Positions 6,064 through 39,747 of a stretch of 39,747 nt of DNA are shown here, one piece after another. Each line of letters opens with the position of its first letter. The first letter of the stretch is position 1. The position numbers and the translations under genes were made by a program. Origin of the DNA: Escherichia phage Vec13; sequence record NC_048023.1; one strand, given 5' to 3'. The notes under the pieces are model-generated. The model made no database searches. It worked only from the letters and a program-made list of their open reading frames with translations, and was not told the DNA's origin.

Positions 6064-6086
6064 AAGAGGTTAACCTAAACTATCAC
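6064..6086 (+). promoter_or_regulatory. Phage RNAP promoter (phi1.1-like; candidate primary replication origin region)
   Basis: cctaaACTATCACTATAGGatt; in T7 the phi1.1A/B promoters with adjacent AT-rich DNA form the primary origin. Confidence 0.8.
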
Positions 6087-6128
6087 TATAGGATTAGACT
6101 CAAGGTCATGACTCAAAGTCGTGGCCTT
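6084..6128 (+). promoter_or_regulatory. RNase III-like hairpin (conserved tagactcaaggtcat ... gtggccttcatgatta)
   Basis: One of three near-identical elements (also 13374..13418, 36491..36538); aaggtca pairs with tggcctt with a G-U. Confidence 0.55.
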
Positions 6129-6169
6129 CATGATTAACCCTAAATAAACACTACTGGAGATTTAACCGT

Positions 6170-10063: not shown

Positions 10064-10518
10064 TGACTACCTGTAAAGACCTTGAAGTTGGAACACGTTA
10101 CAGATTCTCAAAGAACACCCTGTTGAATAACCCCAGCTTCACTGATGCTGTTTTCGAAAAGCGAGAAGACCATAGCGTAATTGTGGAGAAGGGGTGGCAT
10201 CCTGAGGATTATATCGGTGAGACTACCAGCTGGAATGGTCACGAGACCTACAGTGTAGAAGTTGTTGACCAGCCTCAAGTCCTGCCAGCTTCGAGCGTAC
10301 CTCCTGTGACTGTGAAGCGTGAAGTCCTGACAATCGACAAGATTGGTGTAGGCCAGACGTTCATCGTCCATGGAAAGCCTGAAGAAGTTTACGTGAAGAT
10401 TAGCAACTCACACGTCTTCAACCATAAGCGTCTCCAGATGCACACCACGGACGCACAACGCTTCACCCAGCACCTGAATCTAGTGGTCGTAGAATTGGTG
10501 GTGTACAATGGTAAGTAA
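10063..10518 (+). CDS. Hypothetical protein (151 aa) inserted between endonuclease I and lysozyme
   Basis: ATG overlaps gp3 stop (tgATG) with SD aaggag 8 nt upstream; overlaps lysozyme start; no T7 counterpart at this position. Confidence 0.6.
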   Translation: MTTCKDLEVGTRYRFSKNTLLNNPSFTDAVFEKREDHSVIVEKGWHPEDYIGETTSWNGHETYSVEVVDQPQVLPASSVPPVTVKREVLTIDKIGVGQTFIVHGKPEEVYVKISNSHVFNHKRLQMHTTDAQRFTQHLNLVVVELVVYNGK

Positions 10519-10966
10519 GGTACAGTTCAACCCACGGTCCCGGACTGACGCTATCTTCGTTCACTGTTCGGCTACCAAGCCAGAGATGGACATCGGGGTA
10601 GAGACCATCCGTATGTGGCACAAGCAGCAAGGCTGGCTGGACGTAGGCTACCACTTTATCATCAAGCGCGATGGTACTGTGGAAGAGGGTCGCCCGGTAA
10701 ACGTCGTAGGGTCACACGTTAAGGACTGGAACTCACGGTCTGTAGGCGTCTGCCTTGTAGGTGGAATCGACGCTAAGGGCAAGTTTGAAGCTAACTTCAC
10801 TCCGGACCAGATGAACTCCCTACGCAACAAGCTGGCTGACCTGAAGTCCCTGTATCCTCAGGCAGAAATCAAAGCACATCATGATGTAGCACCAAAGGCG
10901 TGTCCAAGTTTCGACTTACAGCGCTGGCTGTCTACTAATGAGCTGGTCACTTCCGACCACGGTTAA
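10508..10966 (+). CDS. N-acetylmuramoyl-L-alanine amidase / T7 lysozyme (gp3.5 homolog)
   Basis: 152 aa; TDAIFVHCSATKP, QGWLDVGYHFIIKRDGTVEEGR, VGVCLVGGID, HHDVAPKACPSFDL, NELVTSDHG match T7 lysozyme. Confidence 0.95.
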   Translation: MVSKVQFNPRSRTDAIFVHCSATKPEMDIGVETIRMWHKQQGWLDVGYHFIIKRDGTVEEGRPVNVVGSHVKDWNSRSVGVCLVGGIDAKGKFEANFTPDQMNSLRNKLADLKSLYPQAEIKAHHDVAPKACPSFDLQRWLSTNELVTSDHG

Positions 10967-10990
10967 TAAACTCTAAAGGAGAATAACTTA

Positions 10991-11206
10991 ATGATTAAAC
11001 TTATCGAATTTCTAGGTCGTCTGGTGGTGCGTGGTTATCGTCGTGCTGCGGTACTGGAACGAAAGGTAGAAAAGAAGACTGCTGATGGCGCGGCTGATGC
11101 GGCTGCTCTGGCTGACAAGCTGACCATCGCGTCACTGGAAGCTGGCATGAAGGCTCGTCAGGCTGATACCAAAGCTGACCAGTTGGCTCAGTTCTTCAAA
11201 GACTAA
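10991..11206 (+). CDS. Hypothetical protein (71 aa, Ala-rich, predicted helical)
   Basis: Strong SD aaaggag; position of T7 gene 3.8 but no HNH motifs. Confidence 0.5.
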   Translation: MIKLIEFLGRLVVRGYRRAAVLERKVEKKTADGAADAAALADKLTIASLEAGMKARQADTKADQLAQFFKD

Positions 11207-11223
11207 ACTATCACCTTAGGGAT
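11201..11223 (+). promoter_or_regulatory. Possible weak phage promoter variant
   Basis: gactaaACTATCACctTAGGGa; two mismatches at -5/-4 relative to consensus; T7 has phi3.8 at this location. Confidence 0.3.
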
Positions 11224-11274
11224 GGGACCATGAGTCCTGTCCCTTTGTTCGCATTTGTGACTAAGGAGTGACCG

Positions 11275-11454
11275 ATGGTTACAGTTATTCTAGTTCTAAC
11301 GCTTATCAGTGGTAGTGGGCAAACTATCAGCCAAGTACCTATAACAGCACCAACATTACAGGACGCATTCACAATATGTGACCAGTCCGGCTCAAAGTGG
11401 GCCGACAAGTTTGGCGATGTCTCAAACGTTGCAGCAGGGTATGAGTGTATTTAA
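11275..11454 (+). CDS. Small protein (59 aa) with N-terminal signal-peptide-like hydrophobic segment
   Basis: RBS ctaaggagtgaccgATG is nearly identical to gene 4 RBS ttaaggagtgaccaATG; MVTVILVLTLISGSG hydrophobic N-terminus; below ORF-track cutoff. Confidence 0.45.
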   Translation: MVTVILVLTLISGSGQTISQVPITAPTLQDAFTICDQSGSKWADKFGDVSNVAAGYECI

Positions 11455-11461
11455 GGAGTGA

Positions 11462-13165
<1,704 letters not shown>

Positions 13166-13207: not shown

Positions 13208-13372
13208 GTGTTAAAGAAACTTAAAGCTCGATACCACATGTTCATGTACAAATGGTGGAGCGATGAAGCAACCTGCCTGTCGAACATTCTGGGAGACCAG
13301 CGGTTCAACTCTGAGGCATGGAAGAAAGCTAACCGGAAGTTCATGTATCACTTCTTGCGTACAGACTTCTAG
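13208..13372 (+). CDS. Small hypothetical protein (54 aa, GTG start), gene 4.3/4.5 position
   Basis: Strong SD acggagga 7 nt upstream of GTG; below ORF-track cutoff. Confidence 0.35.
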   Translation: MLKKLKARYHMFMYKWWSDEATCLSNILGDQRFNSEAWKKANRKFMYHFLRTDF

Positions 13373-36490: not shown

Positions 36491-36538
36491 GTGTTAGACT
36501 CAAGGTCATTACTATATGTAGTGGCCTTTATGGTTAAC
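36491..36538 (+). promoter_or_regulatory. RNase III-like hairpin (conserved element copy 3, R18.5-like)
   Basis: gtgttagactcaaggtcat ... gtggcctttatggttaacac; outer arms gtgtta/taacac complementary. Confidence 0.55.
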
Positions 36539-36591
36539 ACTAACTAGTGGAGGAGACTCTACGTGAAATCTGATAAACCGGGAGGGCAACT

Positions 36592-39568: not shown

Positions 39569-39747
39569 TCTCACAGTTCAAGAACCTCAAGTCTCCCCAT
39601 AGGCCCTCTTTAAGTCCAGACCAAAGGCCCTACCCCAGTCTATCATAAGGTTAGACCGATGGTCAAGACTTCAGGTCAACGATAGGTGGTGACTATGGCT
39701 TAGGGAAGGACGATAGGTGGTGACTATAGGTCTGTCTTTGAGTCTCT
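39569..39747. repeat. Right direct terminal repeat (DTR), identical to 1..179
   Basis: Exact 179-nt repeat of the window start. Confidence 0.9.

Follow-up and report, generated by a model that had tools for sequence, protein, structure and literature searches.

Genetic context of the duplicated ribosome-binding site

The question raised by this locus of Escherichia phage Vec13 is why a 59-codon open reading frame (ORF59) and the primase-helicase gene that follows it (gene 4) are preceded by almost the same ribosome-binding site (RBS). The window analysed was the whole 39,747-bp sequence (NC_048023.1), and coordinates given without a prefix refer to it. The genome has the gene order of T7 and belongs to a Kayfunavirus, a K1F-like T7-family phage, and its exact 179-bp terminal direct repeats (1–179 and 39569–39747) indicate that the sequence is that of a complete linear phage genome. 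An 801-bp test region covering the locus was 100% identical to Escherichia phage PhiNW-B1 and 95–99.6% identical to many Kayfunavirus phages. The local order is lysozyme (10508–10966), a 71-aa gene, a phage promoter, a hairpin, ORF59 and gene 4, with the following features.

10991–11206, + strand: 71-aa gene of the gp4.3 family (gp3.7 in K1F annotations), phrog_1950, E=4e-25
11204–11222, + strand: variant of the phage RNA-polymerase promoter, TAAACTATCACCTTAGGGA; the genome has 11 promoter matches in all
11218–11244, + strand: hairpin with an 11-bp stem and a 5-nt loop at the predicted transcript 5' end, in both the MFE and the centroid fold
11262–11277, + strand: left 16-nt repeat copy TAAGGAGTGACCgATG, comprising Shine–Dalgarno (SD) sequence, spacer and ORF59 ATG
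11275–11454, + strand: ORF59, 59 aa (MVTVILVLTLISGSGQ...YECI), ATG start, TAA stop, phrog_6794
11278–11467, + strand: 190-bp segment absent from most relatives, equally writable as 11262–11451 because its placement is ambiguous within the repeat
11452–11467, + strand: right repeat copy TAAGGAGTGACCaATG, comprising the ORF59 TAA overlapping the SD, spacer and gene 4 ATG
11465–13165, + strand: gene 4, the essential 566-aa primase-helicase, whose translation start region is duplicated

The 71-aa gene shares family phrog_1950 with gp4.3 of phage BA14 and gives a weak Pfam match to DUF5471. This gp4.3 homolog lies upstream of gene 4 here, rather than downstream as in the T7 group. The EcoDS1 annotation of gp3.7 holds a 31-aa version only.

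The two ribosome-binding sites as a direct repeat

The original prediction had described an ORF at 11275–11454 and a near-identical RBS in front of gene 4, and both are present as described, the two copies lying 190 bp apart, start to start (TAAGGAGTGACCGATG from 11262 and TAAGGAGTGACCAATG from 11452). The copies agree at 15 of 16 positions, spacer included, and the repeat core TAAGGAGTGACC(G/A)ATG is found at 11262 and 11452 and nowhere else in the genome. A search of the 39.7-kb genome with the 12-mer, one mismatch being allowed, gave no third match; the chance expectation under the same rule was 0.18, and at least two matches were seen in 1 of 100 shuffles.

It could be that two strong SD sites simply look alike by chance in a phage rich in TAAGGAG. 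AAGGAG occurs 44 times on the + strand, and there are eight TAAGGAG-N3-9-ATG sites in the genome, but the spacer is common only to these two. Given the low expectation for the 12-mer even with one mismatch, the agreement that extends through the spacer, and the exact coincidence of the repeat with indel boundaries in dozens of genomes, a chance likeness is hardly credible, and the indel alignments described below had already ruled it out.

Presence and absence of the 190-bp segment

The 801-bp region was matched by 183 phage records, of which only 15 carry ORF59; most of the others match in two pieces, over a span of 610–611 bp as against 801 bp. Phage Peacock, when aligned, lacks exactly 190 bp, corresponding to the ORF plus one repeat copy, and keeps a single TAAGGAGTGACCAATG before gene 4. 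Because the alignments of the relatives lack exactly that interval, the two RBS copies mark where a presence/absence polymorphism begins and ends. The length of the indel equals the spacing of the repeat (190), and the sequence of the repeat equals that of the empty site. In substance, then, the local duplication proposed in the original prediction was correct: the RBS copies are a direct repeat that matches the empty-site sequence and brackets an optional 190-bp gene cassette. The reading that we favour, and consider likely, is that ORF59 is a dispensable accessory gene carried on this cassette and that the duplicated RBS is the footprint of its joining.

A divergent allele was present in a metagenomic Kayfunavirus contig (L016), where the segment is 79.4% identical to ORF59 at the nucleotide level and 88% at the protein level. 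The flanks of this contig are 99.1% identical to Vec13 on the gene-4 side and 92.4% on the left, and the differences start a few codons past the left repeat and stop at the right repeat. The confinement of divergence between the repeats, together with a dS of 1.39, indicates that the cassette has its own, much older history. Carriers are scattered over different phage backbones. These comparisons indicate that cassette alleles are swapped inside a conserved frame to which both repeats belong.

A transposon with target-site duplication was considered and rejected. The 16-nt target direct repeat is present at both ends, but the cassette ends lack inverted repeats (none were found in 11240–11480), and the only ORF of the cassette is that of 59 aa, with no Pfam domain above threshold. 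As to homing endonucleases, ORF59 was found to lack a nuclease domain of the HNH, GIY-YIG or LAGLIDADG type.

The original prediction had also offered a shared translational control element, and this part fared less well, as only the SD and spacer common to ORF59 and gene 4 speak for it. On such an explanation selection would keep the two RBSs identical as a translational operator co-regulating both genes, acting either through a repressor that binds both sites or through an RNA structure that both adopt. The 16-mer is indeed almost invariant at both positions across carriers, the 79%-identical allele included, and translational coupling would be possible because the gene-4 SD contains the ORF59 stop codon. 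However, cassette-less relatives have a single copy. Moreover, an Rfam search of 10900–11700 returned nothing meaningful, the RBS regions folded no better than shuffled sequence (z = -1.7, +0.8, +0.1 and -0.8), and the predicted folds of the two copies are unlike each other; a structured translational operator was rejected because no Rfam family matched and the folds were at shuffle level. Nor does the motif serve as the RBS of gene 4 in the other phages of the T7 group that are tabulated in PMC4925675. Finally, the conservation is accounted for by both copies being part of the recombining backbone. A shared operator is thus regarded as very improbable.

The promoter and 5' hairpin upstream of the segment

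The promoter variant upstream of ORF59, which had been described as weak, proved to be a real site, being one of 11 in the genome and identical in 18 of the 19 relatives examined; the EcoDS1 and CR44b annotations mark it as a promoter. The variant at 11204 (CACCTTAGGG, consensus CACTATAGGG) matches the genome's own promoter consensus at 17 of 19 positions. Both mismatches fall in the change from TATA to CTTA just before the start site, a change unique among the 11 genome promoters. It is plausible that the promoter at 11204–11222 is weak. Phage Penshu1 was found to be without both the 10991–11206 gene and the promoter.

All 11 pairs of the hairpin are retained in 15 of the 19 relatives examined, and phage 101120B1-2 shows one both-sided change, from G-C to A-U. 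T7 late leaders carry 5' stem-loops, which the predicted hairpin at 11218–11244 resembles. The leader, made up of promoter, hairpin, spacer and RBS, is near invariant irrespective of what the slot contains. A consensus scan for a terminator in the cassette gave one weak site, overlapping the ORF59 start, at chance expectation.

Elsewhere in the genome, a 53-nt direct repeat of 83% identity was observed at 6094–6146 and 36494–36546, the first copy lying immediately 3' of the phage promoter at 6076–6094.

Other occupants of the slot upstream of gene 4

The same position is filled differently in other K1F-like phages. In IMEP24/P762 it holds an unrelated 58-aa ORF, for which no PHROG family was found; both RBS copies are present, and the TGA stop of this ORF lies inside the right copy. 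In 216Ecol046PP a gp3.8-type HNH gene (phrog_4578) occupies the slot after ORF59, starting at the same RBS+ATGG, and a decayed HNH remnant with the same RBS+ATGG start is found in PE3-1. With the HNH insert the first gene-4 codons are replaced and the RBS is not duplicated. The HNH gene of 216Ecol046PP was seen to bring its own GTG start and different first gene-4 codons, and the remnant of PE3-1 and of an IMG/VR contig is internally deleted and has the same altered gene-4 start (loci L019:866–1231 and L024:575–705). Side by side, the gene and its remnants look like the decay of a homing element.

A further occupant, found in 34 Kayfunavirus-type records, is a 79-nt tRNA-like gene whose right junction reads C/TAAGGAGTGACC.

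L023:571–649, L025:645–723 and L022:821–899: tRNA-like gene in the same slot as Vec13 11262–11464

It scored 36.7–38.7 bits against the Rfam tRNA model (threshold 29), with an oversized anticodon loop, and was called Thr(CGT) or Ser(TGA) by ARAGORN, depending on the variant; some GenBank records label it tRNA-OTHER. The slot before gene 4 is therefore a hot spot of insertion in K1F-like phages, gaining and losing at least four kinds of unrelated insert.

Homologs in Berlinvirus and Przondovirus

ORF59 homologs (phrog_6794; 38–71% identity) were found in Berlinvirus (BA14, 285P, pO103 and others) and also in Przondovirus (kpssk3, vB_Kp1, Cornelius and others). In both genera the homolog always lies downstream of gene 4, with gene 4.3 on one side and gene 4.5 on the other. 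A gp4.3-family gene precedes the ORF59 homolog in all three genera, and a promoter and hairpin stand between the two in Kayfunavirus only.

The Berlinvirus and Przondovirus gene (AS7_0023 of BA14, annotated 'unknown product'; gp19 of kpssk3; gp27 of vB_Kp1) is homologous to ORF59, has the same length and shares the same invariant residues. Like ORF59 it is optional, its absence taking the form of an exact indel, and its stop abuts the next SD. The two differ in setting: ORF59 lies upstream of gene 4, with a promoter and hairpin before it and a full SD, whereas the Berlinvirus/Przondovirus gene is translationally coupled to gene 4.3 through TGATG or TAAATG junctions.

In Przondovirus of the Kp1 type the homolog is bracketed by a different direct repeat of 16–20 nt, TAAGGAGTTCTTCTAA, with a spacing of 196. 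In many Przondovirus records the matching span is shorter by about 196 bp, and the two that were examined, YMR1 and KP32_196, lack exactly 196 bp. The left copy of this repeat is formed by the last gp4.3 codons (KEFF-stop); in the right copy, before gene 4.5, the same gp4.3 codons are repeated in a non-coding position. As the left copy is coding and the right copy non-coding, the repeat derives from the target. Target-site duplication accounts for the Przondovirus repeat, and an ancestral coincidence fails to do so.

Empty sites in Berlinvirus read CTGTAAGGAGTAAC; the indel ends at TAA/GGAG, and the repeat is only short and degenerate. The word TAAGGAGT, a stop codon plus SD, is present in the empty sites of all three genera, and in the T7-family homologs the cassette stop abuts the SD of the next gene or lies within a base or two of it.

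Distant ORF59 homologs were also observed on two non-T7 contigs (L026 and L027), with similar RBSs on both sides. These contigs carry many small early genes (L026:2250–5690 and L027:1470–3210) with a stereotyped RBS, TAAG(A/G)GGATTTAA..ATG, and because that RBS is common to many genes there the flanking sites were not counted as evidence.

A model for the joining and loss of the cassette, and its main rival

On the favoured reading, the cassette would enter between the conserved promoter and 5' hairpin on one side and the primase-helicase gene on the other. We infer gain, rather than loss, as the direction of the event, and as its pathway an illegitimate, microhomology-guided recombination in mixed infections, by template switch or single-strand annealing. 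The 3' join would be made via TAAGGAGT, which would serve both as the cassette's own stop and as the SD of the following gene, and the 5' join would fall at or beside the resident start codon. Re-entry into the recipient would take place upstream of the exit point, and therefore the SD-to-ATG interval would be duplicated. As the repeat would be a copy of the gene-4 start region, the incoming ORF and gene 4 would both have an SD at working distance, and selection would remove events that harm gene-4 translation. Once in place, the repeat would allow precise loss of the cassette by deletion between the copies, restoring the empty allele, and together with the conserved flanks it would allow homologous swapping of cassette alleles. 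Microhomology at the 5' junction is little or none (ATG or CTAA at most), which makes the exact pathway uncertain. A TGATG overlap in the donor was considered as the source of the G before the left ATG and was dropped, since other carriers have A.

Deletion between short direct repeats is established in T7 (Studier et al. 1979; Kong & Masker 1994; cited in PMC5630979), and this leads to the principal alternative. ORF59 and the two-RBS state could be ancestral to Kayfunavirus, inherited with the gp4.3-like gene; the empty allele would have arisen by deletion between the RBS copies, perhaps repeatedly, and the RBS identity would stem from an earlier duplication or conversion rather than from insertion of the cassette. 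The deletions reported for T7 provide a ready route. The order of gp4.3-family gene followed by ORF59 is held in Kayfunavirus, Berlinvirus and Przondovirus, and could reflect ancient linkage rather than independent insertion. The dS of 1.39 between the two Kayfunavirus alleles makes the cassette old in the genus, the carriers are spread across different backbones, and some or all of the empty alleles could be secondary deletions. However, each locus has a repeat of its own, in every case identical to the empty-site sequence found there, and in Przondovirus the right copy places gp4.3 codons in a non-coding position, as target duplication gives. An unrelated ORF has the same duplication in the same slot, and the promoter and hairpin part the gp4.3-like gene from ORF59 only in Kayfunavirus. 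Taken together, we hold an ancestral two-RBS state to be unlikely, and prefer the joining of a cassette.

A broader extension of cassette joining is that TAAGGAGT serves T7-family phages as a general microhomology for docking, giving an integrase-free system of single-gene cassettes. Cassettes such as ORF59, the IMEP24 ORF and possibly the tRNA-like gene would plug in before any gene with TAAGGAGT, copy its RBS and pop out precisely, and ORF59, travelling beside gp4.3/4.5, would be a mobile counter-defence gene. This extension is speculative and is put forward as a doubtful proposition. It is also plausible that the gp3.8-type HNH homing endonuclease, through double-strand breaks at the same site, may boost the activity of the gene-4 slot.

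Comparison with known systems

Literature searches returned no description of ORF59 or of RBS-bounded cassettes. The slot of T7 gene 3.8 (HNH endonuclease) has the same genomic position, directly upstream of gene 4, but gene 3.8 encodes a nuclease and ORF59 has no nuclease domain.

The morons of lambdoid phages, reportedly defined by Juhala et al. in 2000 as extra genes inserted between two conserved genes, are like ORF59 in being single accessory genes that some close relatives carry between the same neighbours and others lack. ORF59 differs in that it brings neither promoter nor terminator: it relies on the promoter already resident there and on a copied RBS, and the promoter and hairpin stay whether the slot is filled or empty.

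The promoter-early stem-loop (PeSL) elements of T4-type phages, said to have been described by Arbiol et al. in 2010 as mobile regulatory cassettes, resemble the Vec13 repeat in that short repeated expression signals lie at gene boundaries and small genes are gained and lost in a modular way. Unlike in PeSL, what is repeated in Vec13 is not a promoter with a stem-loop: an SD, a spacer and a start codon make up the unit, which is seen at a single slot of the genome.

As in the direct-repeat deletions of T7, Vec13 has a short repeat (16 nt, 190 bp apart) and the empty allele is the expected deletion product. The T7 deletions are laboratory events, whereas the ORF59 polymorphism is natural and found in three genera; and, unlike in those deletions, the repeat of Vec13 is the translation start region of an essential gene.

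The ORF59 cassette clearly illustrates, in nature, a type of phage genome change that is already known, ordinary gene shuffling, in which what is modestly new is the same stop-plus-SD word at junctions in three genera and for unrelated inserts. A sequence oddity is explained in this way as a recombination footprint rather than as a regulatory element. For the engineering or comparison of therapeutic K1F-like phages, the slot offers a naturally tolerated insertion site with promoter and RBS, with the warning that the 16-nt repeat, where it flanks an insert, can lead to the precise loss of that insert.

The ORF59 protein

ORF59 matched the phrog_6794 profile with E=1.5e-23, residues 1–59 aligning with profile positions 1–60 of 62. 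All 15 GenBank copies encode an identical protein at a nucleotide identity of 97.2–100%; the four nucleotide differences from phage Mirsaeidi are all synonymous, and comparison with the L016 allele gave a dN/dS of 0.058 at the dS of 1.39. These substitution patterns indicate that ORF59 is a real coding gene, conserved and under selection. Across 12 sequences the residues M1, T3, L6, L8, T9, L10, G15, I18, V21, C35, G39, W42, A54 and C58 are invariant, and the Cys/Trp/Cys pattern persists in remote homologs.

For ORF59 Pfam gave only one match, below threshold (an ASPP2-like RA domain, E=0.14). A profile search of 1.84 billion representative proteins returned three strong clusters (E below 1e-10) and three weak hits to small proteins; five further long, multi-stretch hits look spurious and were set aside. 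No relatives were found in 185,579 bacterial and archaeal genomes. From the profile search and the genome scan the family appears narrow and phage-restricted, and these protein and genome searches found no host origin for it. The work thus defines phrog_6794 as a small, strongly selected, phage-only protein family.

An AlphaFold2 model of ORF59 was obtained with pLDDT 92 and pTM 0.72, the first ten residues having a pLDDT of 95. It has strands at residues 2–12, 15–25 and 53–58 and a helix at 28–47, the first two strands forming a beta-hairpin that packs with the helix and with strand 53–58. BFVD models of relatives (32–40% identity) superpose over the full length with TM 0.84–0.89, and fold comparison returned generic alpha/beta-sandwich matches only.

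The original prediction had called the protein secreted-like on account of its hydrophobic N terminus. If ORF59 were exported or membrane-anchored, residues 1–15 would be a signal peptide or anchor and the cysteines would form a periplasmic disulfide. The hydrophobic region is of the expected kind (about 7–15 residues), with a mean Kyte–Doolittle hydropathy of 3.05 over residues 1–11 and 1.61 over residues 1–19, and SGSG/Q agrees with the small -3/-1 rule for cleavage. Furthermore, one transmembrane segment was called by TMHMM in the annotation of phage Pipis, and C35 and C58 are invariant, remote homologs included; together these last two leave some room for an envelope location. However, no Lys or Arg precedes the hydrophobic stretch or occurs in the first 15 residues, homologs begin MVT, MHT, MST or MIT, and in the YSYH homolog a Pro directly follows the putative cleavage site, at +1 (SSG/P). 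Conservation within the family is highest, not lowest, over the first 25 residues (52–100% identity against 21–97% for the rest), unlike what is seen in signal peptides. The signal-peptide reading is unsupported because AlphaFold2 places the hydrophobic N terminus, residues 2–12, in the beta-hairpin of a compact globular fold, a confident strand paired with residues 15–25 that the independent BFVD models also show. The secreted-protein reading is probably wrong, and export or anchoring is considered improbable. ORF59 most likely encodes a small alpha/beta protein that stays in the cytoplasm and is produced along with the replication (class II) genes.

Its neighbours elsewhere offer an indication of function. 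The gp4.3, 4.5 and 4.7 proteins are dispensable in T7 (PMC12664982), and for gp4.3 and gp4.5 a role in countering RADAR has been proposed (PMC11482910). With dispensable and RADAR-linked neighbours, a host- or defence-directed accessory role is our best guess for ORF59, made by analogy and with low confidence; the protein probably binds a host or defence factor. As phrog_6794 travels with genes implicated in counter-defence, it is a reasonable candidate for functional screens. In Vec13 itself, the position where T7 has genes 4.3–4.7, between gene 4 and the DNA polymerase gene, is taken by a 54-aa ORF (13208–13372) that matches phrog_13039 (E=1.5e-38).
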